In this document: one piece after another, positions 1 to 13,310 of the stretch
How positions within the stretch are numbered: position 1 is the first letter of the stretch
Layout of the letters: each line of letters begins with the position of its first letter
Virus record (IMG/VR): IMGVR_UViG_3300020331_000002
Length of the DNA: 64,000 bases
Source: a virus
Taxonomy: Duplodnaviria > Caudoviricetes
Direction: 5' to 3' (one strand)
Notes under the pieces: generated by a model
Database searches by the model: none
The model's input: only the letters and a program-made list of their open reading frames with translations
Told to the model about the DNA's origin: nothing
Made by a program: the position numbers and the translations under genes

Positions 1-151
1 CAGGTTCAGTCGGTAGTGACCCGTTTTCTTTATAATACAATACATCGGATTTAATTCTCGGCACTTTGTCATTCCTCACTACAGGCATCTTAATCGGGTC
101 TGGTGATTTTAGCTTTTTCGGCCTTACCGGGCCTCTGAATCTAATTGGCAT
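1..151 (-). CDS. Partial gene (runs off the window); 4th member of the MPIRF N-terminal-module family
   Basis: Not in the ORF track. Manual translation from ATG at 151 gives MPIRFRGPVRPKKLKSPDPIKMPVVRNDKVPRIKSDVLYYKENGSLPTEP, near-identical to the start of 1917..2708. TAATG overlap with the stop of 151..1317. Confidence 0.9.
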   Translation of the reverse strand, partial: MPIRFRGPVRPKKLKSPDPIKMPVVRNDKVPRIKSDVLYYKENGSLPTEP

Positions 152-1317
152 TACTTTGTCACCTTCATTATTCTCCCAGTACTGTCTTGGTACGGGATTA
201 GAATTTCAGTTTTACTGAGCATGGTGATGTTGTACATCATGCCACTGCGTGCCTGTGTTCCTGTATATATTTCAGTCGGTAAGGTATACCAACTGTCTTG
301 GACATATTCGGTGCCATTCCAAGTATACTCAATAATACTGAAAGCGTTTGCGTTATCTTGTTCTTTACTACCGGTACACACCACAAACATGGTACCGCCT
401 TGGCCGCGCACAGCAATAGGCCTATAAGAGTTGCCCGGCAATGGGTACGGGTTAGGTATGCGCTGAACTTCCGTCATCGTTGCAGCTACGTCGTCATACT
501 CAAACACAGATATAAAGGCATGGGCGCCAGAGTTTTCTGATGGACTTGCGATTGCCGTCACTAGCAGTCTATCTTGGTCAACACCCATAGAGCCGCCGAA
601 TAGCAAATCATCGTTTGGAAACTGATACCCTATCAATGCCGTAGACGTATATGTAGACGAATCGGCGAGCGTATGGGTAATTGACTTGCGTGCAGATGGA
701 TCAGTTCTAAGCCTGTACCCGATCATGCCGCCGTAATCAGTACCTTGACGCCAATGAGGCGACGACGTTATTTGCAAGTCTTTGTAAACTACGCTCTGTC
801 GTCCTTCTAGTCCAGCAGACGATGTAAGGTCCGCACACACTACACCAGCATCAGTTACTGTACCTGTAGTAAAATCAAAACCGTATCTACGTGTTTGGCC
901 AGAGTTACTAGAGAAAGTCGGGCGGCCAATATACACACAATCATATTCACGATCAAATACTGTCTGGCCTGTTATGATATTAGACAACGCCAACGTGTCA
1001 GTTTGCTGCCATGCTGAGCCGTCCCATTTGTAAAAGTACACACTAGCCGCAACGTCACCGACGTGTAGCGCCATGACGTCGCCGTCTATGACTATACAGT
1101 CAGCGCCACGTGAGCCGTCGGCAGCAGCAGGCAGGCTAAAATACTCACTTATAGATGTCCACGGGTCTGATACTCTTGGCATCTCACCGTGTTCTTTATA
1201 GTATTGTACTTCGGTCTTAACTCTCGTAGACCTATTGTCGCGCACTAAAGGCATATTGATTGGATCTGGTGATTTTAGTTTACGTGGCTTCACCGGGCCT
1301 CTGAATCTAATTGGCAT
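151..1317 (-). CDS. Putative virion adhesin/receptor-binding protein: MPIRF module plus beta-propeller-like C-terminal domain
   Basis: 388 aa; shared ~47-aa N-terminus followed by a beta-rich, aromatic, blade-like repeat region; lies in the structural operon. Confidence 0.55.
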   Translation of the reverse strand: MPIRFRGPVKPRKLKSPDPINMPLVRDNRSTRVKTEVQYYKEHGEMPRVSDPWTSISEYFSLPAAADGSRGADCIVIDGDVMALHVGDVAASVYFYKWDGSAWQQTDTLALSNIITGQTVFDREYDCVYIGRPTFSSNSGQTRRYGFDFTTGTVTDAGVVCADLTSSAGLEGRQSVVYKDLQITSSPHWRQGTDYGGMIGYRLRTDPSARKSITHTLADSSTYTSTALIGYQFPNDDLLFGGSMGVDQDRLLVTAIASPSENSGAHAFISVFEYDDVAATMTEVQRIPNPYPLPGNSYRPIAVRGQGGTMFVVCTGSKEQDNANAFSIIEYTWNGTEYVQDSWYTLPTEIYTGTQARSGMMYNITMLSKTEILIPYQDSTGRIMKVTK

Positions 1318-1319
1318 GG

Positions 1320-1907
1320 TTACTCCATTAATTCAAGCGATCGTATTCTAAACGCTGGGCCGCCGCCGCCAGTATGTTGGCCCCTAAATACAATAAGGTT
1401 CATATCAGTAACAGAAAAATCCATCTCGTATCTTGTCCAGCTACCCTTAACCGCAAGCGGCATATGAGTGTTATTATATGCATATGTATTTTGACCAGAA
1501 GTATTATTCCACGATATACGGAATAGTCCGGTTTTCGGGCTCGTGGTATTTGACCCCACGTCAAATACGCATCGTATTGTTCCAGTAAAAGGCAAGGTTG
1601 TTGACCACTGTGCCTTAACAAAACTACTGGTCATAGAACAATACCATCGCTCGGTGACAGTATCTGTATTTCCGTCCAATGCGTAACTGCGGGTCATGTC
1701 TGTATTTTCATCGACGTATGTTCCGCTACCCAGGGTAGATCCGAATACCAAGTGAGCGGTATCACTAGGCATCTCGCCGTTCTCTTTGTAATACTGTACT
1801 TCGGATTTAATCTTCGGTACTTTATCATTCCTTATGGCCGGAATATTGATCGGGTCTGGTGTTATTAGTTTTTTCGGCTTCACCGGGCCTCTGAATCTAA
1901 TTGGCAT
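1320..1907 (-). CDS. Putative virion adhesin: MPIRF module plus carbohydrate-binding jelly-roll-like domain
   Basis: 195 aa; shared N-terminus; C-terminal ~140 aa resembles a galactose-binding-like beta-sandwich (W..YE.DF, FRIRSLEL end). Confidence 0.5.
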   Translation of the reverse strand: MPIRFRGPVKPKKLITPDPINIPAIRNDKVPKIKSEVQYYKENGEMPSDTAHLVFGSTLGSGTYVDENTDMTRSYALDGNTDTVTERWYCSMTSSFVKAQWSTTLPFTGTIRCVFDVGSNTTSPKTGLFRISWNNTSGQNTYAYNNTHMPLAVKGSWTRYEMDFSVTDMNLIVFRGQHTGGGGPAFRIRSLELME

Positions 1908-1916
1908 ACGATATCC

Positions 1917-2708
1917 TTATGCGTTCGGGTCAGTTACGGTTAGCCTAAAGTTGCCAACACGGGTAGTACTGTTATTAGCCCCTAATCTAAGAGTAGGAGC
2001 GAAGGTACTATCATACGTCCACAATGTGGTTCCGACTTGCACTGCATTAACGAATACAGTCACTACATTACCGGTTTTAGTAATCTTAAACGTCTGCGGG
2101 TAATCGAAGTTCCACCCGCCTCCACTAGTGGGGTCGAATTCCGCATCAAGTACACCAATTGTGTTACTCGCGTAATAGGTTCCAAACGGCGTAATCTGGT
2201 TCCAAAGTCGACCGTCGTTGTTTGTTTGCCACCACCAGTAAAATAGCGGCGCACACGACGTACCTTGATAGTTTTGGTCATCCAGAGCAACGAAAGCGGA
2301 TATGTTTGCTCCGTACGCGGCACGATTACATTCTAATGTCAATGTAAAATCGTGGCCGGGAAGAATCGGAAACGTTTTTATTTGATTATCGGATACCTTA
2401 GTTAGCTGCGTAAACGCCCAATCATCGCCGTGTTGTACAGACACGTAGGTACTGCCATAAGTCTTTTCAGCGGAGCGCAACTCATCTGTTAGGTAAAATG
2501 CACCCGACGGATCGAACGAGCCCGTCTCGTTGTTACTCGATATATCATAAACCACGGCAGGTTCAGTCGGTAGTGAGCCGTGCTCTTTGTAATACAATAC
2601 TTCGGATTTAATTCTTGGCACTTTGTCGTTCCTCACTACAGGCATTTTGATTGGATCAGGTGATTTTAATTTACGTGGCCTCACCGGGCCTTTGAATCTA
2701 ATTGGCAT
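1917..2708 (-). CDS. Putative virion adhesin: MPIRF module plus ConA/LamG-like lectin domain
   Basis: 263 aa; shared N-terminus; the C-terminal pattern FKITKTGNVVTVFVNAVQVG is typical of ConA-like beta-sandwiches. Confidence 0.5.
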   Translation of the reverse strand: MPIRFKGPVRPRKLKSPDPIKMPVVRNDKVPRIKSEVLYYKEHGSLPTEPAVVYDISSNNETGSFDPSGAFYLTDELRSAEKTYGSTYVSVQHGDDWAFTQLTKVSDNQIKTFPILPGHDFTLTLECNRAAYGANISAFVALDDQNYQGTSCAPLFYWWWQTNNDGRLWNQITPFGTYYASNTIGVLDAEFDPTSGGGWNFDYPQTFKITKTGNVVTVFVNAVQVGTTLWTYDSTFAPTLRLGANNSTTRVGNFRLTVTDPNA

Positions 2709-2725: not shown

Positions 2726-4720
2726 TTACATGTACGAAACGCTAATTATTGCCGAACCCACAGTTGAGCCGTTTGGCTTGTAAGCAGCAATAATAACCGA
2801 GTCTGTACCGTCTCCGTTGTCTAGCACCATGTCGGATTGTATCGAATATGTACCCTCGGTTGCTAAGTCAAGCAAGTCGTTATCCATAAGTCTGTCAGGG
2901 TCAGTGCTAGGCCCTAGTGTAAGTTCAGCACTGCCGTCGAATTCCGTCGTTACCGTGACAGTAATCAACGTTATTCTTGAACCAGGCGATACACTACCGA
3001 TTATTAAGGTAGGTTGAGAGTCAAAATTCAACTCAACAGTCATCGTATCAGCATCAGTGCGTGCACTGTCTTCGTCTGCGGTTCTTACCCAGTCTTGTCC
3101 AGTCCACAAGTAGATAGCCCATTCGCTATTGCCGTCGTCTATCACATATGCTTGGTCACCAACAAGTGGATTAAGTATGTCACGACTATTTACATCGGCT
3201 ACCACAGTCATGCTCGAGCCGCCCGATCCGGAAGATATGACACGTAAGCCTTGCTCAACATACATCGCTTCGGCTTTTGCACCGTTTTCTACTGTATATA
3301 AGCCGGTGTCTTCTACCGGAGTACCAGAAACGTTTCGTGTACTAATAGGACCGGCGTCACTGCCTTCTACTTTGATTTGGACGTCACTAGTACCAGATGT
3401 GCTCAACGGCAAGCCAGTAGACGAGGCAGGGCCTGCGAAGTTATTACCGGAACCGTCGGACGCGATATTAGTGATGTTAATTGCGCCACCTGTGCGATCA
3501 TATAACCGCAAAAGACCATTATTGTCTTCACCGTATATGTCAGCGTTGCCGGCCGCGTTCATATCTCTTTCGATGGCAGCAATCATATCATCCACGTTGG
3601 CCGCGGTAGTGCCAAATTGCGCGGTTCCGTTGGTAGTCAAGTCGAATGTGACCAACACTCCGTTTATTTCTGCCTGTGACGTGTTGCCTATTGCGCCCGT
3701 AACACCATAAGCCAAGTCGCCTACACTACCAGTTACACTAGTCGGAGGCGCCACAGAGCTCGCAAGAACGCCAGTCGTGCCCGTTACTGCGTTAATAGAA
3801 CTGATGATATCGCTTGTATCACCTACACTAAAAGTAACTTCTACGCCGTTCACAGACATTTTATTACCCGCGGTAGTTGTCGGGTTTATTACGTCAGAAA
3901 TGTGTTCGGTTACCGTTGCTTCTTTAGTCTTTATGTACATAATGTGGTCAGTAACATTGGTTGTTATCTTACCAGCATTGTTTTCGTCAAGATAAAGAAT
4001 AGACGCAACGTCCCCAGGAAGAGAGTCTAAATCATCAATTATGCGCTGTACAGGTGTTACGTAGAATCCGTCAGGTCCCGGGCCTAATGCACTAACACGA
4101 CCAACGATATACGGATACTCAGGCGCGGATAAAACCCAACTATTAGTAGAGGGGTCTGCCGCGACTATATCGCCTATCTGGAACGAGTGCCCTTCCTGTG
4201 TCATCGGGTAATCGTACTCGAGGTTGATGTTCTGGAAGCGACTCATCAGGTTAGCAAAGAATATAGAACTAATAGTCCCCGGCGTCAGGCCGTCTAGTAA
4301 CGGTTCGCCTTCTTCGTTTAGTGTGAATATAAGAGCAGAACCAGCTTGCGGTGCACCTGATCCTTGTGCGCCAGGATCACGATACGTGTTATAACGATCA
4401 ACATCCTCTAAGATAAAAGACAGTGTTGTTTCTGACTTGCTTACTATGCCTACTATCTTATGCGCAGTACCAGTTGACGTGTTTGCTAGCCAATCACCGA
4501 TGGCTACATCATAACCATTATATTCGAATGGCTTGCGTGTTAAGTGGCTAGAGTGATTTGATTTAGTGACAGTGACATCTACTGTCCAGCGATAAAAGCG
4601 AGGGCTTGAGCCCCCGCTCCAATAAGGATCACCAGTGCCGTCGTCGTATATCCAACGTTCGTATCCCGAGATATTAGATACTTCGGCACGGATGAGCTTT
4701 GAGGGTAAAGAAATGGCCAT
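2726..4720 (-). CDS. Virion structural protein (tail/baseplate-associated)
   Basis: ~664 aa, G/T/S/D-rich; carries a fibre-type segment VVADVNSRDIL..GDQAYVIDDGNSEWAIYLW. ATG at 4720 with an AAGGA RBS is preferred over the track's TTG at 4726. Confidence 0.6.
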   Translation of the reverse strand: MAISLPSKLIRAEVSNISGYERWIYDDGTGDPYWSGGSSPRFYRWTVDVTVTKSNHSSHLTRKPFEYNGYDVAIGDWLANTSTGTAHKIVGIVSKSETTLSFILEDVDRYNTYRDPGAQGSGAPQAGSALIFTLNEEGEPLLDGLTPGTISSIFFANLMSRFQNINLEYDYPMTQEGHSFQIGDIVAADPSTNSWVLSAPEYPYIVGRVSALGPGPDGFYVTPVQRIIDDLDSLPGDVASILYLDENNAGKITTNVTDHIMYIKTKEATVTEHISDVINPTTTAGNKMSVNGVEVTFSVGDTSDIISSINAVTGTTGVLASSVAPPTSVTGSVGDLAYGVTGAIGNTSQAEINGVLVTFDLTTNGTAQFGTTAANVDDMIAAIERDMNAAGNADIYGEDNNGLLRLYDRTGGAINITNIASDGSGNNFAGPASSTGLPLSTSGTSDVQIKVEGSDAGPISTRNVSGTPVEDTGLYTVENGAKAEAMYVEQGLRVISSGSGGSSMTVVADVNSRDILNPLVGDQAYVIDDGNSEWAIYLWTGQDWVRTADEDSARTDADTMTVELNFDSQPTLIIGSVSPGSRITLITVTVTTEFDGSAELTLGPSTDPDRLMDNDLLDLATEGTYSIQSDMVLDNGDGTDSVIIAAYKPNGSTVGSAIISVSYM

Positions 4721-4756: not shown

Positions 4757-7168
4757 TTATCCTGGGATATGGAAAAGAACAAACACCCTCGCATAGTACG
4801 TCGGCAAACCATTAAGGTTATTTGCGCCCGTGTTAGCACGTGACATTGCCATTTGCCATTGCCCCACATTCTCTTGCGTAGTCTTAGGCAAGTCTGGATC
4901 AGTATAGCTTTTGCCGTTTGGATCAGTCATAAACAATTGTTGGTCGACAATCTCTGTCGTATCTATGATGTTCCATTTACCAGTAAACAAGTTCTGAGCA
5001 TAAATCATACAAGCAACGGGTGGCAAGTTATAACCAGAGAATGTAAACCCTGTTAAGTTCTGCTCGTCTGCGGTGATATATTCAATTGCCACACCTGCAG
5101 AGTGCTGTGTTGCTGCCTGATCAAATGTGTCACCTGCTTGGTACTGGAATACAGCCCATTCATAACCGCCTGAGCCACTACCACCAGATCCAGCCGGTGC
5201 TGTTAGTGCGAACGTGCCTGCGCCTAAGTCAATCGAACCAGTAACGTTACCGCCTGATTGCGACAATGTAGGTAATGCTGTAATCTCAGACCACGCATGG
5301 GTGTGAGTACTTGGCGGGAACTCAGTTGGCACATCAGTCAAGTCGTTATAACTATATGTTGCTGATCCGCCTGTTGGTGTAGCCGCTACCCACTGTCCGC
5401 TCTGATACGTTAGTACATCACCTTCACTTCCTGTAGGGAAATCCGAAATGTCACTGAATGAGTGAGTGTGTGCACTAGGTGCAAACGTACTAGGTACATT
5501 TGACAGGTTACTATAATTACCATCAAACGGTGTGTATACTTCCCATGTTAGCACGCCGTAACGTATACTCTGCCCTTGTGACGGAGACAAGTCAAACAAG
5601 TTATAAAACTGTTCGAATCCCAGCTGTCCATTACCGTCTGTTACCATTACTTGGCCAGCACTGCCGTCAGCAGTCGGTAAGTTGAATCCGTCTATAGTGA
5701 ACGATCCGGTAGTCAAGTCGCCGCCTAGTACAGGGTTGGTGTCGTCAGATACTGCCGTTAAGCCGTTAGCCGAAATCGTTGCCGCTACCCACTCAGTGCC
5801 ATTATATCGAAGCACCTGACCTGATGTTGCTCCAGACACGTCTGTATCAGATAGCCCTGTAAGAGATGTTGCTGCGGTTTGTGGTGCTTGTGCTAACCAC
5901 TGCGTGCCGTTCCACGTTAGTAGATCACCGCTTGTGCTACCTTGCGGGAAGCCTGTAATCTGACCAAATGTATGGGTGTGAGCACTCGGTGTAAACGACG
6001 TCGGTCTATTCTGTATGGCTGACCATTCCGGATTAGCAGATGAGTCACTGACGTTTACTACTAGTGTTCCGTTTGCTAGGTTTAGTGTGCCTGAATCAAT
6101 ATTCTGCCCGGTAACTGGAATATCAGTCGGTTTGTTCTGTACCAGATTCCAGTACGTTTGTCCAGTTGTGTTAGCCTGTGCTACCCAGCCGCCTGTAGCA
6201 GAGTTCCATACTAGAATCTGTCCGTTAGACGTGCCTTGCGGAATTGTGCCTTGCGGGGCGTCTGATATAACCCATGTAGACCCATCCCAGGTAAAGATCT
6301 GTCCAGGTGACGTGCCGACCGGCAAATTGCCATTACGAATCTTGTCAAACTTTAGTGAACCGTCCGAGTCTACAACTAATATATCACCTGCACTACCAAC
6401 AGCGTCGGGGAATAAGTAGCCACTGATCCCGACACGCCCTTGATCACCGCCTTCGAGCATCAAGTCATCACTGCCGTCAGCACGTATGGTAGACGGGCCT
6501 GCACCAGTGTCGAATATAATGCCGCCTTCACCGGTAATGGCCTGTCCGTTAGTCTTTAATGGTGCGCTAAGTGTTGGATCAGGATCACCAAACAAGCTAA
6601 ACGAGCCGCCTGTGCCGCCGCCACCGCTTCCGCCTGTGCCGCCTACTTGACCCACATATACGTAACCTTCGACTGTCAGACCTGTACCGACGTTAGGTAC
6701 ATTGTTTACAAATTGCAGTACTCCAGATACGTAATCAAATACCCACTCAAAACCATTGTTAAGCGGGTTTAACGAGTTAGCAGGGTCAACTGTATTGTCG
6801 CTATAAACTTTTAATAGATAATCAGACCCAAACGACGGCGGGATCCAATTTCTTACACGGTTAGCAGGGTCAGTAGTAGAGCCATTCGGATCTACTAGAG
6901 CAAGCCATGCTTTGTTACCAGGTACCGTGGGGTCGGGCACTAACGTCACCGCGTCTGCACCCGTACGAAGTTCTATTTGTGACGTAGTGATAAGAGGGGC
7001 AGTAGTTGGTATCACTGAAGCCTCGCTCCAAACGAAACGCGCATCTACTACTATCGGACTGGCTATCGTTTCGTTAGCAGCCGCCTTACCGCCTATATTG
7101 GTGTTCGAGACACCGAATATAAGCTTCTTCCACAAATAATCAACTTTTTGACTATCACTAATTGCCAT
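4757..7168 (-). CDS. Tail fibre-like protein with G[QD]xLxW[DN]GxxWV repeats and HTH (HxH) fibre repeats
   Basis: 803 aa; ~7 WxGxxW-type repeats and 3 PS[AT]HTH repeats; the N-terminal ~185 aa is paralogous to 7179..9269. Confidence 0.7.
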   Translation of the reverse strand: MAISDSQKVDYLWKKLIFGVSNTNIGGKAAANETIASPIVVDARFVWSEASVIPTTAPLITTSQIELRTGADAVTLVPDPTVPGNKAWLALVDPNGSTTDPANRVRNWIPPSFGSDYLLKVYSDNTVDPANSLNPLNNGFEWVFDYVSGVLQFVNNVPNVGTGLTVEGYVYVGQVGGTGGSGGGGTGGSFSLFGDPDPTLSAPLKTNGQAITGEGGIIFDTGAGPSTIRADGSDDLMLEGGDQGRVGISGYLFPDAVGSAGDILVVDSDGSLKFDKIRNGNLPVGTSPGQIFTWDGSTWVISDAPQGTIPQGTSNGQILVWNSATGGWVAQANTTGQTYWNLVQNKPTDIPVTGQNIDSGTLNLANGTLVVNVSDSSANPEWSAIQNRPTSFTPSAHTHTFGQITGFPQGSTSGDLLTWNGTQWLAQAPQTAATSLTGLSDTDVSGATSGQVLRYNGTEWVAATISANGLTAVSDDTNPVLGGDLTTGSFTIDGFNLPTADGSAGQVMVTDGNGQLGFEQFYNLFDLSPSQGQSIRYGVLTWEVYTPFDGNYSNLSNVPSTFAPSAHTHSFSDISDFPTGSEGDVLTYQSGQWVAATPTGGSATYSYNDLTDVPTEFPPSTHTHAWSEITALPTLSQSGGNVTGSIDLGAGTFALTAPAGSGGSGSGGYEWAVFQYQAGDTFDQAATQHSAGVAIEYITADEQNLTGFTFSGYNLPPVACMIYAQNLFTGKWNIIDTTEIVDQQLFMTDPNGKSYTDPDLPKTTQENVGQWQMAMSRANTGANNLNGLPTYYARVFVLFHIPG

Positions 7169-7178
7169 GTCTTATCCT

Positions 7179-9269
7179 TTACTTGATCTCTATGCCCGTA
7201 ATAGAATCATTTGCTTCCATACGGAAACGAACATAAATCTTGTTATCCGTTGCGTTCGTAGATGTCTCAGTACCGAAAGTGGCTCTAAATGTACCGGATG
7301 ATCCAGTTGCTACTGAACCCAATGCGCACCCCGCTGTGGGAACGCCAGCGCCGCCGTATAGTTGGAACATATCCCACCATCCAGCAACTCCCGGTATCTG
7401 TACTTCAAGGCCACTGTATGTGCCTGTGACTTGAATATCAAATAACGATACTGCCGAGCGTCTAAACTCAACTGTAAAATACTGCACAGCAGCCTTACTA
7501 GAGTAGTCAGGGCCAGCTGGTAGATAGCCACTTGTGTAATCAGTGTTGTCGTGGCGCATAACGCCGCCCACTACCGTCGCCTCATCTGATGCTACTAACG
7601 TAGAAGAATCCCATGCAGAAAAATCACTAGTATTTACGCGATATCCATTTGTACTTGCGCCAGAAGGAATACTGCCTAAACTAGACCTAACCGGTATATT
7701 AAGTTCCTTTACCGGTGATGTTGGGTTGCCACTCATTACTAGCACAGTCGAGCCAAAGCTACTTGAGCCGTCTTTATCTGGATTGTGTGCCGAAACACTA
7801 ATTGTAGAAGAACGATGGTGATTGCCGGATATAGTAAGGGGCATGTCTGTGATTGAGCCACTTGCATAATTCACAACAAGCGGATCAGGTAAGCCATAGT
7901 CACCAGCGCCTGCTTGAGTAGAAGCTACCGAGCCTGAAATGGATCCTACGAATATGCCTTTTTGTAGATATGTTTGTGTAGACAAGTTAGTGGCAGACGC
8001 ACTGACAAGCAACACACTACCGGCGTCATAATGCGGTACACCACTACTAAGTGATGTATTGATAGTTGAGCCTTCCGTTACAGAAACACCACTCACAGTC
8101 ACAGTGTCACCCACAGTGTCTACCAAGAAATCAGCAGTATTAGTCGTACCAGTTTCACTGTGCTCTAGCACGGCGTTGTTTAGACCAAGTGTTGTTATAT
8201 TGGCTATACGTGCGCTCAAGTCCTGGAAGAAGCCGGGTGTCTGTTGCGGGAAGTCATCGTTGGCCGTGATAGTAATAAAGCCATTCGCGCTTGTGCCAGT
8301 ATCATCGCCGCCTGTTAACGGTATGCTGTCAATCGAGCTGCCGTTTAACGTCGCAGATAATACACCACTATTACCGGATCCAAAGCTGGTAACGAGTGCG
8401 CTAGATGCACTATTCGTACTTCTATTAGCCGCAGGAGATCCAGCCGCTGGACCGCTGCCTGTATTATCGGTATACCCGTCTGCGTAATAAAGCGCACCGT
8501 TAGGTCGAGTATTAGGAAACGACAGTGTCTTAGTAGACAGATCATCGGGCCCGTCTGGTAATAATAGACCCAATATCTCATTCAAGCTATCAACCGCATC
8601 TACTATTTTTGTATTCGTTGTCCATCCAGTAACAGCAGGGGACTTGCCACCAGTTACTCTAGGTGCATCAAAGTCACCATCAGCCGGAAGCTCAGTAAAG
8701 ATAGGTGTGCCGCCTGTGCCGCCGCCAGACGATCCTGTGCCGCCTACCTCACCGATATATCGGTAGCCCTCTACTATAATACCAGTGCCTGCAGGCGGGA
8801 TATTATTGATGAATTGTAACACACCAGAAGCATAGTCGAATACCCACTCATTATTGGCAGCTAATAAGTTAAGGGAATTACCAGGCGCCACTGTTTGATC
8901 ACTATAGACTTTGACAAGATAGTCAGGTCCAAATGATGCCGGGATCCAGTTGCCAAGCCTGTTAGCGGGATCAGCCGGGTCGCCGTTGACATCACTTACC
9001 GCAATCCAAGTCCTGTCATTAGCCACAGTAGGATCTGGTACAAACACCACAGCATTAGCGCCCGTCAGGACTTCTATAACACTAGTATCACTCGCAGGTG
9101 GTGTCGCTGGTATAGATGCCGCTTCGCTCCAGACATTGCGTGAGTCTACTATAACCGGACTCGGTATAGTTTCGTTAGCCGCTTGCTTAGCGGTAGTAGA
9201 TGTGGAAGATTGCCCGTATATTAGCTTCTTCCATAAAAAGTCTACTTTTTGTGAATCGTTAATAGCCAT
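7179..9269 (-). CDS. Virion structural/fibre protein
   Basis: 696 aa; N-terminus MAINDSQKVDFLWKKL shared with 4757..7168; C-terminal ~500 aa shared with 9282..11276. Confidence 0.65.
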   Translation of the reverse strand: MAINDSQKVDFLWKKLIYGQSSTSTTAKQAANETIPSPVIVDSRNVWSEAASIPATPPASDTSVIEVLTGANAVVFVPDPTVANDRTWIAVSDVNGDPADPANRLGNWIPASFGPDYLVKVYSDQTVAPGNSLNLLAANNEWVFDYASGVLQFINNIPPAGTGIIVEGYRYIGEVGGTGSSGGGTGGTPIFTELPADGDFDAPRVTGGKSPAVTGWTTNTKIVDAVDSLNEILGLLLPDGPDDLSTKTLSFPNTRPNGALYYADGYTDNTGSGPAAGSPAANRSTNSASSALVTSFGSGNSGVLSATLNGSSIDSIPLTGGDDTGTSANGFITITANDDFPQQTPGFFQDLSARIANITTLGLNNAVLEHSETGTTNTADFLVDTVGDTVTVSGVSVTEGSTINTSLSSGVPHYDAGSVLLVSASATNLSTQTYLQKGIFVGSISGSVASTQAGAGDYGLPDPLVVNYASGSITDMPLTISGNHHRSSTISVSAHNPDKDGSSSFGSTVLVMSGNPTSPVKELNIPVRSSLGSIPSGASTNGYRVNTSDFSAWDSSTLVASDEATVVGGVMRHDNTDYTSGYLPAGPDYSSKAAVQYFTVEFRRSAVSLFDIQVTGTYSGLEVQIPGVAGWWDMFQLYGGAGVPTAGCALGSVATGSSGTFRATFGTETSTNATDNKIYVRFRMEANDSITGIEIK

Positions 9270-9281
9270 TATTCAAAATCC

Positions 9282-11276
9282 TTATGATCTAATTTGGATG
9301 CCGCTTACTGCGTCGCCTGCTTCTAATTTAATCCTTACGTACACTTTATTGTCAGTGGCGTTTGTAGAACTCTGTGTACCGAATGTGCAAGTGAAAGTAC
9401 CTGTTGAACCTGTTGCTATGCTACCCAACGCACACCCAGGGTTAGGTACGCCGGATCCGCTGTATAGTTGGTACATGTCCCACCATCCTGCAACGCCTGG
9501 TAGTTGCACCTCTATGCCTGAATACGAGCCTGTAATCTGTATATCGAATAACGATACGGCTGTTCGTCTAAACTCAAACGTAAGATATTGGGTTGAGTTT
9601 TTGTTGCTGTAATCAGGACCAGCTGGTAGATAGCCACTTGTGTAATCAGTGTTGTCGTGTTTTAAAATACCACCGACCACTGAAGCTTCATCCGGTGCGG
9701 TACTAGCTGATGAATCCCAAGCAGAAAAATCACTGCCGTTTACTCGATAACCGTCTGTAGCGGCACCTGAAGGAATACTCCCCAACGATGCTGATACTGG
9801 TATTTGCATTTCAATAACAGGGCCTGAGCTTGTCGGTGTAGGGTTACCTGACATCACAAGTAAGGTCTCTGCTACGTTCGCTTTAGAGGATGTTTTATCC
9901 GGGTTATGCGATACTAGACCGAGCTTACTAGTGCTATGTATATTGCCGCCTATCGTAAACACTGCACCTGTAAATGACGCACTTGCCAAGTCCTTATCAA
10001 ATATAGCAGGTAGGCCATTTGAGCCAGGATTAATAGATACATTAGATCCTGTTCCGTTTGTTGCGCTGATAACGAACACCCCGGATGATTTATATGCGTT
10101 AGTGGCCAAGTTAGTACCGGTTCCGTCTAGCGTAATAGTCGTGCCGTTTACATAATGCGGTATACCGGAAGACTGTGTTAATACGGAATTCGTCACAGTA
10201 TACGAATCGATAGTTGCTGTGGTATCAGGTGCAACCGTGTCATACAACACATGCGCTGTATTAGTCTCGCCAGTTTCACTGTGCAAGAGTTTGGCTTGGT
10301 TTAAACCAACTGACATGTTTACACCGCGCATACGCGCACTCAAGTCTTGGAAGAAGCCTGGTGTAGTAGCAGGATAGTCGTTATTGGCCGTGATGGTAAG
10401 CGACGCGTCAGTACCACTATTATCGGTACCGTCTAGTGTAACAGATCCGTCTACTACACCGTTTATCACAGCATCAAGCACACCGCTATTGCCAGAACCG
10501 AAGCCACTGATAATAGAAGTTTGCGGAACAGACGTGGTGCGTGATGGTATATCATCACCAGCAGCAGGACCCGAACCAGTATTGTCGATATAATTGTTCG
10601 CATATTTTAGGCCGTTCGTGTTACCGAACGTAAGTGTTTTGGTACTAAGTAGAGCAGGCGCGTCAGGCAATAACAACCCGACGATTTCATTCAGACTGTC
10701 AAACGCGTCTACTATTCTACTAGTACTTAGTAGGCCTTGAACAGCAGGAGTCTTGCCGCCTGCTATCCTCGGCGCATCAAAGTCACCGTCTTGCGGCAAT
10801 GCACCAAACACAGGAACGGCTTGTCCGCCTGTTCCGGTTGGCATGTCTACAGCGACCCAGGTTCCGCTTGCTGCGTCGTACGATAATACTTGTCCGTCTG
10901 TTGCTGCCGGGAATTGATCCACGGCTACCCAAGCCGAGTTGGTTGCATCCCAAGCAAGGACCTGACCGTCTGCGACATTGGTTGGCATTTGAACAGAGCT
11001 GTCTGACACTGCTACCCATTGGGCGCCATCCCATTTAATTATGTCATTGACGTTTACACCAACCGGTACATTGCCGCCAGTACCCGACGCGGTCAGTAAC
11101 ACGAGGTTGTTATTTGCATCAACACCAACAACCTGGTTTGGTGTAGCCGTATCTTTACCCAGTACGTTTAACTCACGTAAACCGACCGCGCTTTCTTGAA
11201 TGTCTTCGGAGGCAACGCCACCGTCTTTAATTACTTCGGAGGTTACCCTTGTTAATCCTCGTCTAGCCATAGTCAT
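9282..11276 (-). CDS. Virion structural/fibre protein
   Basis: 664 aa; three GQVLxWD..xWVAV-type repeats followed by a C-terminal region paralogous to 7179..9269. Confidence 0.65.
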   Translation of the reverse strand: MTMARRGLTRVTSEVIKDGGVASEDIQESAVGLRELNVLGKDTATPNQVVGVDANNNLVLLTASGTGGNVPVGVNVNDIIKWDGAQWVAVSDSSVQMPTNVADGQVLAWDATNSAWVAVDQFPAATDGQVLSYDAASGTWVAVDMPTGTGGQAVPVFGALPQDGDFDAPRIAGGKTPAVQGLLSTSRIVDAFDSLNEIVGLLLPDAPALLSTKTLTFGNTNGLKYANNYIDNTGSGPAAGDDIPSRTTSVPQTSIISGFGSGNSGVLDAVINGVVDGSVTLDGTDNSGTDASLTITANNDYPATTPGFFQDLSARMRGVNMSVGLNQAKLLHSETGETNTAHVLYDTVAPDTTATIDSYTVTNSVLTQSSGIPHYVNGTTITLDGTGTNLATNAYKSSGVFVISATNGTGSNVSINPGSNGLPAIFDKDLASASFTGAVFTIGGNIHSTSKLGLVSHNPDKTSSKANVAETLLVMSGNPTPTSSGPVIEMQIPVSASLGSIPSGAATDGYRVNGSDFSAWDSSASTAPDEASVVGGILKHDNTDYTSGYLPAGPDYSNKNSTQYLTFEFRRTAVSLFDIQITGSYSGIEVQLPGVAGWWDMYQLYSGSGVPNPGCALGSIATGSTGTFTCTFGTQSSTNATDNKVYVRIKLEAGDAVSGIQIRS

Positions 11277-12832
11277 TAATCCTTATACATATTGATAATT
11301 GACCAACCAGTGCCGTTGTGATACAGCGTTACTGATGCGTATGGCTGCGTAAGTGTTAGCGACACCTGTCCATCAATTGGCTGATTAGCGTTAATCGTTA
11401 TATTACCAGTGCCCGCAACGTCTTTGATAGTCAATTGCTTGCCTGCATCAGCGATCATCATATTCGGTAATGTGATTACTGTGTTGGGCTGTGTAACACT
11501 TATTACCCCGTCAAGAGGGTCTGCGGTGTAAGCAGAGGTAGACACACTAACGTGGCCACCAGTAAGTCTGTTGCTGATTTCGATTACATCATTGACCACA
11601 CGCATACACAATCCGGGGCCAGTGCGTAGTGTTCTGATATCACCGTCTTGGTTGACTAGCTGATATCCATTTCCTGCGTTGCTTACTGCTAATTGTGTAG
11701 GCGCAGTAATGTCGCGACCGATTACCAAGTCGCCATTTACGTCAACATCTATGCGAATATCATCAGCAGCCGAAATCGACGGCACGTCTGGTATCGCATT
11801 AATTTGGTTTTTTAGTGCCTGTGATAAAGCAAAGTCAACAGTATCGGCATTCTCGGTCACGATTATATCATCATCGCCCCGCATTCTACGCATATGAAGT
11901 TCATAGCCAGTCTTAGTTCTACGCAACTCCTTGAGGTTTCGAGCCCCGTCTTCGGTTATATAGAACGCCGCCATTGCACAGGCGCAGCCGTCAGTATCAT
12001 CCACGTTGGACTCAAACGTAATGCCCAGTATTTCAACCTCTGTCTGGTTGGCTGGTATCTCATTTAGTCTGAATATAGTAGATCCGTCAGTCTGCGGTAT
12101 TACTTCAAAGGTTTGTCTACCTTGTTTAATACCATCTAGTGTCAATATAATCTTAGAGCCAATTGCTGACCACGGCACCACAAAGTCAGAGGTCGCACCA
12201 TCAGCGACATAGTTGGCAACCGAGAATGTATTGTTAGGATAACCACGTAGACCGAATACCTCTATCTCAACGCCGACCGGAATGTCTTCGACAAATCGTA
12301 TTGCTGATTGACCGTCTGCCGGATAGTATAGATCATATGCGCCGATGTGCTGTATGACACCATCTAGTGTCACTATTAGCGAAGCGGTATTAGTCGCATA
12401 CCACGGCAACCCAAAGTCGCGTTGGCCACCAGGCGCTACTCGTGTGAAAAGGCCAAGTCGCGACGGTGTTAAAGTTTGGAACCCGTAAACTTCTAGTCGT
12501 TGGCCTTCTACTAAATTCTCACTGAACTCTAATACAGTAACCGAGTCGCCGATGTTTATAGAGAATGAGTCAGCGTGTTGCTTAACACCGTCAATAGTAA
12601 CAAGCAAACTCGTCGTAGAGATCGCGCTCCAAGGCAATGTGAACCTTGATTCGTTGCTCATCACATCTAGTTGGAAACATTCAATAGTTTCACTTATTGT
12701 TGGTTCTTTGGTACCGCCTGGTACTTCAGGCAAGGTACCGCCATGCTCGCCCGATAAAACAAGACAGCCTTCTGCCATGATCTTTAAAGCGAGTGATTGA
12801 CTGTAAAGAGTGTTGCATGCATTAATAGCCAT
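11276..12832 (-). CDS. Virion structural protein with three internal repeats
   Basis: 518 aa; three F.[LV]PW..L.[VL]T[IL]DG[VI].Q repeats; C-terminal ITLP..GKQLTIKD..IDGQ..YASVTL fibre-tip-like domain. Confidence 0.6.
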   Translation of the reverse strand: MAINACNTLYSQSLALKIMAEGCLVLSGEHGGTLPEVPGGTKEPTISETIECFQLDVMSNESRFTLPWSAISTTSLLVTIDGVKQHADSFSINIGDSVTVLEFSENLVEGQRLEVYGFQTLTPSRLGLFTRVAPGGQRDFGLPWYATNTASLIVTLDGVIQHIGAYDLYYPADGQSAIRFVEDIPVGVEIEVFGLRGYPNNTFSVANYVADGATSDFVVPWSAIGSKIILTLDGIKQGRQTFEVIPQTDGSTIFRLNEIPANQTEVEILGITFESNVDDTDGCACAMAAFYITEDGARNLKELRRTKTGYELHMRRMRGDDDIIVTENADTVDFALSQALKNQINAIPDVPSISAADDIRIDVDVNGDLVIGRDITAPTQLAVSNAGNGYQLVNQDGDIRTLRTGPGLCMRVVNDVIEISNRLTGGHVSVSTSAYTADPLDGVISVTQPNTVITLPNMMIADAGKQLTIKDVAGTGNITINANQPIDGQVSLTLTQPYASVTLYHNGTGWSIINMYKD

Positions 12833-13290: not shown

Positions 13291-13296
13291 TATTTA
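13291..13296 (-). promoter_or_regulatory. TAAATA putative late promoter for the structural operon
   Basis: CTAAATA in a 53-bp gap, 34 nt before the ATG at 13257. Confidence 0.55.
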
Positions 13297-13310
13297 GTGA
13301 TACCATTTTA

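Follow-up and report, generated by a model that had tools for sequence, protein, structure and literature searches.

A lineage-specific N-terminal arm with interchangeable heads in a marine jumbo phage: a candidate virion-docking peptide

What is the role of a short peptide that opens a whole series of phage proteins with otherwise unrelated sequences? The question is raised by a 64,000-nucleotide stretch of DNA (hereafter the window) from the Caudoviricetes record IMGVR_UViG_3300020331_000002. At positions 2-2708 (- strand), three complete open reading frames (ORFs) and one open-ended ORF carry a common basic, proline-rich N-terminal arm of 47 residues. All four start with MPIRF[RK]GPV[KR]P[RK]KL, 25 positions are invariant within residues 1-47 when the four arms are aligned, and the downstream parts (the heads) are unalignable. 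An earlier reading of the letters alone (the original prediction) had proposed that the arm is a plug that docks adhesin-like heads onto the virion. We confirm the observation, which extends further than first described, and find the interpretation plausible and in part supported. We lean towards the arm being a lineage-specific docking peptide that fastens interchangeable, predicted glycan-binding heads to the virion; what we infer is the key step (virion docking), together with the virion location, the binding of glycans by the heads and which partner the arm has.

The first gene of the cassette (1917..2708, -) encodes 263 aa, the arm (2568-2708) being followed by a predicted concanavalin-like beta-sandwich head. 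The second (1320..1907, -; arm 1767-1907) encodes 195 aa with a predicted galactose-binding-like/carbohydrate-binding module (CBM) beta-sandwich head, and the third (151..1317, -; arm 1177-1317) encodes 388 aa with a beta-propeller-like head. The window holds the first 50 codons of the fourth gene, i.e. its arm (2..151, -); after circular joining of the record this gene encodes 372 aa with two copies of a domain designated TGLxW. A fifth arm-bearing gene (373 aa) lies beyond the record origin, after the 372-aa gene. The spacers in this cluster are 0-17 nt, and position 151 is both the end of the 388-aa gene and the stop-overlapping start of the fourth gene. When the genome was searched with the arm, ten arm genes were found in two clusters: cluster A, spanning the record origin (263, 195, 388, 372 and 373 aa), and cluster B, on the opposite strand ~100 kb from the record start (C1:97882-102471 in record coordinates; 395, 246, 243, 384 and 255 aa). 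The arm and the divergence behind it, predicted originally for at least four genes, are real, but cluster A comprises five genes and the genome ten; likewise, the four window heads are mutually unrelated as claimed, but genome-wide the heads group into families.

The arm is rare. A profile built from the ten arms of this genome was searched against 1.84 billion representative proteins and gave only 13 matches (E 1e-17 to 1e-26). Every match spanned residues 1 to ~49, so that only arm-first proteins were recovered, and all were this genome's own proteins or close relatives from marine metagenomes, forming one small jumbo-phage clade; this was the outcome of the profile search suggested with the original prediction. 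Scans of all arm proteins against Pfam, PHROGs and NCBIfam gave no family match to the arm or to the whole proteins, and no match was found among the INPHARED phages (megablast of the locus; tblastn with the 195-aa protein). Against PDB sequences, the arm profile gave chance-level matches only, to the archaeal uS15 C-terminal helix (E 0.3) and to an anti-sigma factor (E 1.1). The anchor had been called unrecognised, and it indeed matches no known domain in Pfam, PHROGs, NCBIfam or the PDB sequences. Arm residues 31-48 (PRIKSEVxYYKENGxxP; e.g. window 1174-1227, -) resemble the archaeal uS15 C-terminal helix (SKIRRLVKYYKRKGKLPK); this resemblance is probably due to chance, though it is consistent with the helix predicted at residues 32-43 (see below).

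Within the clade, a 306.5-kb complete relative carries five arm genes, a 315-kb relative contig carries six at cluster A, and a third lineage, known from short contigs only, carries at least seven. The phage itself, uncultured but widespread and abundant in the ocean, is present in metagenomes from seven studies. In cluster B of the 306.5-kb relative, two arm genes start with GTG instead of ATG (L016:1498, L017:1498), the arm peptide being otherwise preserved.

Is the arm conserved as a peptide, or are its copies simply young? When 20 arms from the three lineages were aligned, 16 residues were invariant; the composition is basic (11 K/R vs 6 D/E). Among the ten arms of this genome, the mean proportion of nonsynonymous differences (pN) was 0.15 and that of synonymous differences (pS) was 0.60, giving a whole-arm pN/pS of ~0.24, a ratio that indicates purifying selection on the arm as a peptide. 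Since the synonymous sites are strongly diverged (pS 0.60 vs pN 0.15), the conservation of the arm is not just the result of recent copying. By quarters of the arm, pS was 0.38, 0.51, 0.80 and 0.80, codons 25-47 being near synonymous saturation; the 5' end may either have been homogenised more recently, or be constrained as nucleic acid too.

The two ends of the arm differ in what they follow. Residues 1-12 evolve in concert: their identity is 89% among paralogues within one genome whose heads are unrelated, and 68% where the heads are orthologues from different genomes. For residues 25-47, identity between genomes was 66% for orthologous heads vs 57% for non-orthologous ones, suggesting that this part follows the head slightly. 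The lineage signatures of the arm (RFRGPV, KF[TS]GPV and RFSGSA) hold in both clusters, although these lie ~100 kb apart, and P0105, the orthologue of the ConA-like head, also follows the arm signature of its lineage. Such within-genome uniformity of residues 1-12 is as expected if all arms need one shared partner, and gene conversion probably contributes to it.

The arm also marks the place where related genomes part. From the fibre genes through the 263-, 195- and 388-aa genes, and on through the first 80 nt of the next arm, this genome matches the 315-kb relative at 99.8% identity; mismatches build up beyond those 80 nt, placing the breakpoint inside the arm, at about codon 27. Beyond it the heads are unrelated, one genome having two TGLxW genes and the other a second propeller plus a one-domain and a three-domain TGLxW gene, and 98% identity returns just past the last cassette gene. 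Compared with the 306.5-kb genome, this genome shows an arm-bounded insertion and a duplicated TGLxW gene. Within this genome, the 195-aa gene of cluster A and the 246-aa gene of cluster B have arm DNA that is 92% identical and heads that are unrelated. Between the same 664-aa and 938/949-aa flank genes the number of cassette genes is 2, 5 or 6, depending on the genome; heads that were invariant among relatives would have spoken against the original prediction, and they proved variable. Most likely, to judge from these alignments, the arm is a recombination seam for head exchange as well: closely related phages would differ in their head sets because arm DNA common to all copies gives homology for exchange. 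Contigs from other samples have loose ends at arm borders (18-21, 90, 165, 2560, 2650 and 2709-2713), which fit head polymorphism and equally fit plain assembly breaks at repeats; at least one loose end was traced to cross-mapping from cluster B. The contig joints 1323>1768 and 2709>1233 were left uninterpreted, having short sides within arm repeats.

Where the cassette sits bears on what its products may do. Cluster A belongs to a tightly packed block in which a 137-aa gene (start 13256) comes first, followed by a 518-aa gene, three fibre-type genes, a conserved virion-type gene of 664 aa (2726..4720, -; the left flank, upstream of the cassette), the cassette, and a 949-aa fibre gene. Along its whole length, the 664-aa protein shares 36% identity with PA5oct EST35_0303 ('structural protein, ESI-MS/MS', i.e. 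electrospray ionisation tandem mass spectrometry), and the 949-aa protein is homologous to PA5oct EST35_0305, annotated as a virion protein by the same method; both PA5oct proteins were detected in virions by mass spectrometry (PMC7318152). In PA5oct, the slot between EST35_0303 and EST35_0305 holds a single unrelated 211-aa protein, EST35_0304, itself annotated as ESI-MS/MS-detected. In metagenomic relatives with a ~50% identical 664-aa orthologue, the flank genes are directly adjacent and there is no cassette. Because the slot is empty or differently filled in distant relatives, the cassette is this clade's own content of a slot that two conserved virion genes enclose. The cassette had been placed at the end of a structural operon: it does lie inside a tail-fibre/virion gene block whose flanks have orthologues verified by mass spectrometry in PA5oct, but not at its end, since the 949-aa fibre gene comes after it.

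EST35_0304 (L025:14012-14647) and the 894-aa fibre EST35_0305 (L025:14714-17398) are alike over their first ~60 residues (..LQFGKKGGK....YVD), which by sequence appears to be a second, unrelated case of N-terminal module reuse at the same slot. The PA5oct slot is comparable to the cassette in its position between orthologous virion genes and in holding a small accessory protein that reuses an N-terminal module; it differs in being one gene, with a fibre-type 'LQFGKKGGK...YVD' start and no MPIRF arm.

All-against-all BLAST sorted the heads of the clade into six families: a propeller type (11 sequences), a D..TG[LI].W domain with one to three copies per protein (14 sequences), a 263-aa type, a 195-aa type, a 255-aa type and a 243-aa type (third lineage only). 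Three propellers and four TGLxW proteins are found among the ten arm genes of this genome. No depolymerase or beta-helix hit was obtained among the arm proteins in the Pfam, PHROGs and NCBIfam scans. For the 263-aa protein, which had no Pfam hit, the Atlas model (predicted template modelling score, pTM, 0.65) matched concanavalin-like clusters over residues 50-263 with template modelling (TM) scores of 0.59-0.70: SO2946-like_C (mostly viral), 3-keto-disaccharide hydrolase, DUF6645 and the GH59 lectin domain. The sole sequence relative of this protein is P0105, whose head is 73% identical and joined to its own lineage's arm. The 195-aa head had no sequence-family hit; its Atlas structure matched discoidin/CBM4_9 clusters (TM 0.63-0.68). 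In a single-sequence AlphaFold2 (AF2) model of the 195-aa protein, the mean predicted local distance difference test score (pLDDT) was ~50 (head ~70, arm <40), and residues 49-195 aligned in VIA-align to CBM32, CBM22, CBM35 and IFT25 sandwiches with Z 7-8.3 and a root-mean-square deviation of ~3-3.6 A; such Z values are middling, in a range called common for such searches, and the match list is nevertheless coherent. The 388-aa head, without a Pfam hit, was assigned by ESM language-model features only, with FG-GAP_2 (PF14312) in 91 of its 100 nearest clusters (best score 0.92); in cluster B the protein has two paralogues (395 and 384 aa) at ~28% identity.

The TGLxW domain had no relatives beyond arm-bearing proteins among 5.8 billion proteins searched, and its profile matched nothing in the PDB sequences. 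The AF2 model of the 373-aa protein (10-row alignment) had a mean pLDDT of ~50; with this model, Foldseek returned nothing at E <= 0.001, the top rows being tandem C-type-lectin-like domains (E >= 0.019, TM ~0.15), a likeness that is only a hint from a low-confidence model. A suspected likeness of TGLxW to DUF1566/Lcl-C was unconfirmed by Pfam at E <= 1. The fold guesses made originally were reasonable at the level of fold resemblance, which agrees with the ConA-like (263 aa) and jelly-roll/CBM (195 aa) assignments; the propeller assignment (388 aa) is suggested by the language-model features only. Judging from these models, the heads are probably carbohydrate-binding. In both AF2 models (195 and 373 aa) the arm was disordered in isolation (pLDDT <40); the low-confidence 373-aa model contained a short helix at arm residues 32-43.

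How these pieces might fit together can be proposed as follows. The arm would hold small heads, probably carbohydrate-binding and variable as a set, at one common virion site, most likely in the tail-fibre/baseplate apparatus of a PA5oct-related marine jumbo myovirus. Residues 1-24 (MPIRFRGPVRPRKLKSPDPINMP) would form an extended, basic, proline-rich plug that is uniform within each genome; residues 25-47 would act as a spacer, with a predicted short helix and a G-x-x-P end, travelling partly with the head; and the arm-coding DNA would supply homology for gain, loss, duplication and exchange of heads. The disorder of the arm alone fits docking, because such a peptide is expected to fold upon its partner. 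By analogy, docking is supported by the finding of the PA5oct orthologues of both flanks, plus the slot protein, in virions. The modelled head folds also support it, being of the lectin/CBM kinds reported on jumbo phages, where discoidin-type and concanavalin-fold lectin domains occur on fibres and virion surfaces (PMC7824862).

The docking reading has precedents. In branched systems of receptor-binding proteins (RBPs), conserved N-terminal peptides that are specific to each group, with lengths from 7 to several tens of residues, serve for docking on T4 gp10-like branching domains; examples are the Klebsiella KP32/KP34 groups, K1E/K1-5/SP6, the Menlow group, PhiK64-1/RaK2, E. coli G7C gp63.1-gp66 and CBA120 TSP1-4 (PMC6872550, PMC13352976). 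PA5oct-type phages have been described as related to RaK2 and K64-1 (10.1101/406421). As in those systems, a short group-specific N-terminal segment is common to several otherwise unrelated proteins of one phage, exchangeable modules come after the segment, and the gene set breaks synteny between conserved structural genes. In contrast to them, the arm has no sequence relatives outside the clade and is 47 residues long, strongly basic and proline-rich; small heads of lectin, CBM and propeller type take the place of trimeric beta-helix depolymerases; the copy number reaches ten, over two distant loci; and docking is here a prediction. The system is a variation on the known conserved-docking-peptide principle, with an arm that is unrelated in sequence.

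Several points weigh against this reading. The presence of the arm proteins in virions is postulated from indirect evidence, and so is a partner. Known systems have trimeric beta-helix spikes, whereas the heads here are small domains of lectin type, with folds that come from moderate- or low-confidence models. Gene conversion alone could explain part of the uniformity of residues 1-12, where pS is lowest (0.38). Cluster B has no recognisable structural neighbour genes. The family of the candidate hub, the 664-aa protein, is widespread (~650-670 aa; 87 clusters at 31-54% identity, on jumbo-phage contigs of up to 561 kb) and most of its phages have no arm genes, a distribution that neither supports nor opposes a socket role. 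PF07880 (T4_gp9_10_N), the family to which the known branching/docking sites belong, was unmatched in the 310-kb genome at E <= 1; T4 gp10-like branching domains are usually found only via profile-profile or structural comparison (PMC6872550). When a complex of the arm and the upstream 664-aa protein was predicted (alignments of 20 and 30 rows, respectively), the scores were 0.00 and 0.00, which is evidence neither way.

Could the arm bind elsewhere, or serve another purpose? T4 Hoc, a single dispensable surface protein, has Ig-like domains and binds the capsid through its C-terminal domain. The cassette would be comparable to such capsid adhesins in attaching adhesion-type domains via one small binding element, and it differs in being a family of heads on an N-terminal peptide within a fibre gene block. 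If the arm fastened the heads to the capsid surface at many equivalent sites, the result would be a Hoc-like, mixed-lectin decoration promoting adhesion to particles, mucus or cell surfaces. The small single- or tandem-domain lectin-type heads would suit this, trimerisation being unnecessary; ten near-identical arms would compete for a single type of site, as would fit a surface with many equivalent positions; a 'head decoration' PHROG is weakly matched by the downstream 949-aa protein; and jumbo-phage head decorations with lectin domains have been reported (PMC7824862). We nevertheless consider it unlikely, as cluster A lies among tail-fibre-type genes and no capsid gene adjoins it. Improbable to a like extent is a location outside the virion, with the arm as a handle for a chaperone, an adaptor of a phage-encoded ClpS/ClpAP system or a host factor, and the heads acting inside infected cells, at their surface or once they have lysed, e.g. 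by masking receptors on debris or infected cells. That cluster B lies among small genes of unassigned function, away from structural genes, and that ClpA is encoded in the same window would agree with such a role, as would the indirect nature of the case for virion presence. Against it, the arm-protein sequences, read directly, contain no signal peptide or hydrophobic export segment; cluster A is embedded between two virion-protein genes with spacers of 0-17 nt; the N-terminus after removal of Met is Pro-Ile, which is not a classical ClpS N-degron; and such head turnover is typical of receptor-binding modules.

Two further explanations are weakened by the absence of protease motifs and by the low pN/pS, respectively. 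The arm might be a capsid-targeting or propeptide signal that is loaded into the prohead and then cleaved, comparable to the capsid-targeting sequence (CTS) of T4 internal proteins or to jumbo-phage inner-body proteins. The hypervariable T4 locus likewise combines a short common N-terminal tag with unrelated, quickly exchanged proteins in arrays, and a basic arm (11 K/R vs 6 D/E) could bind DNA. Prohead-protease sites are (L/I)-x-E in T4-like phages and (S/A/G)-x-E in phiKZ-like phages; neither motif was seen at or near the arm/head border in the 20 aligned arms, where inspection showed Glu in the contexts K-S-E, K-A-E and Y-K-E. The extracellular-type lectin, CBM and propeller folds of the heads, and a locus in the fibre block instead of the head-morphogenesis block, also set the cassette apart from the T4 internal proteins and make this role very unlikely. 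Least probable of all is that the 5' segment owes its conservation chiefly to a role as DNA or RNA (as a recombination site, a translation-initiation context or a regulatory element), the encoded peptide being functionless. Synonymous divergence is indeed lowest in codons 1-12 (pS 0.38 vs 0.80 in codons 25-47) and breakpoints fall within the arm; however, whole-arm pN/pS is ~0.24 with strongly diverged synonymous sites, the 16 invariant residues hold across 20 arms of three lineages, and every arm begins in frame, at residue 1 of its protein.

Returning to docking, a more specific form of it is conceivable, and we put it forward tentatively, as a doubtful proposal: a clade-own plug and socket, in which a disordered basic plug of 24 residues would let at least ten non-trimeric lectin/CBM/propeller heads compete for one class of site. 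Each particle might then carry a stochastic, combinatorial coat, the plug DNA would be the seam that reshuffles heads between co-circulating genomes, and the socket would be unrelated to T4 gp10-type branching domains. If the arm is a docking plug, it would be a compact route to a multi-specific adhesin set, with many small lectin-type heads on one peptide handle and head sets that vary between near-identical genomes. The docking-peptide principle would then extend beyond the enterobacterial-phage depolymerase spikes for which it was first defined, and a socket on the PA5oct-type virion would be indicated; a 47-residue tag could in principle be used for displaying foreign binding domains on phage particles. 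The head-set polymorphism at a fixed slot could serve as a molecular marker for the host-range microdiversity of jumbo phages in ocean metagenomes.

The pairing of arm and head in the fourth gene calls for a remark on the assembly. The window is the reverse complement of the terminal part of a 310,672-bp record that carries a 66-bp terminal repeat, and its first 11 bases are C1:67-77; therefore it was cut from the circularised genome. The 66-bp 'direct terminal repeat' (window 12-77, = C1:310607-310672 and C1:1-66) corresponds to arm codons 25-47 of the fourth gene. Because the terminal repeat consists of arm codons of a ten-copy repeat, the arm/head pairing of this gene depends on the circular join, which could in principle be an assembly shortcut that conceals further cassette genes.

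Four further genes of the block encode fibre-type proteins of 803, 696, 664 and 518 aa (4757..12832, -), assigned to PHROG tail and tail-fibre families. The 664-, 696- and 803-aa fibre-type genes have modules in common (N-terminal phrog_9417, C-terminal phrog_8578). The ~190-aa N-terminal phrog_9417 domain common to the 803-aa (4757-7168, -) and 696-aa (7179-9269, -) fibres is 43% identical to the N-termini of 'tail proteins' from Caulobacter and Brevundimonas jumbo phages and Salicola phage SCTP-2. The 664-aa virion-type protein that flanks the cassette has weak flagellin-IN-like motifs mid-protein and a phrog_4042 C-terminal domain.

The original prediction also described the operon as TAAATA-driven. 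A single CTAAATA, a candidate late-promoter core (13291..13297, -), does stand before the first gene of the block (137 aa), but neither TATAAATA nor CTAAATA was in excess over chance expectation in the window, and on this sequence evidence a TAAATA-driven operon is only a possibility. Contigs from one RNA library cover 153-1101 and 1440-1905, i.e. unique parts of the 388- and 195-aa genes, at a depth like that of the fibre genes, which may reflect transcription or carry-over of DNA. A few kb downstream of the cassette lies a gene for a 426-aa RCC1-repeat propeller (L019:8286-9566 = C1:8286-9566); genes at a comparable position in PA5oct encode a 'kelch-like' protein and a 'putative adhesin', two proteins that mass spectrometry found in the virion.

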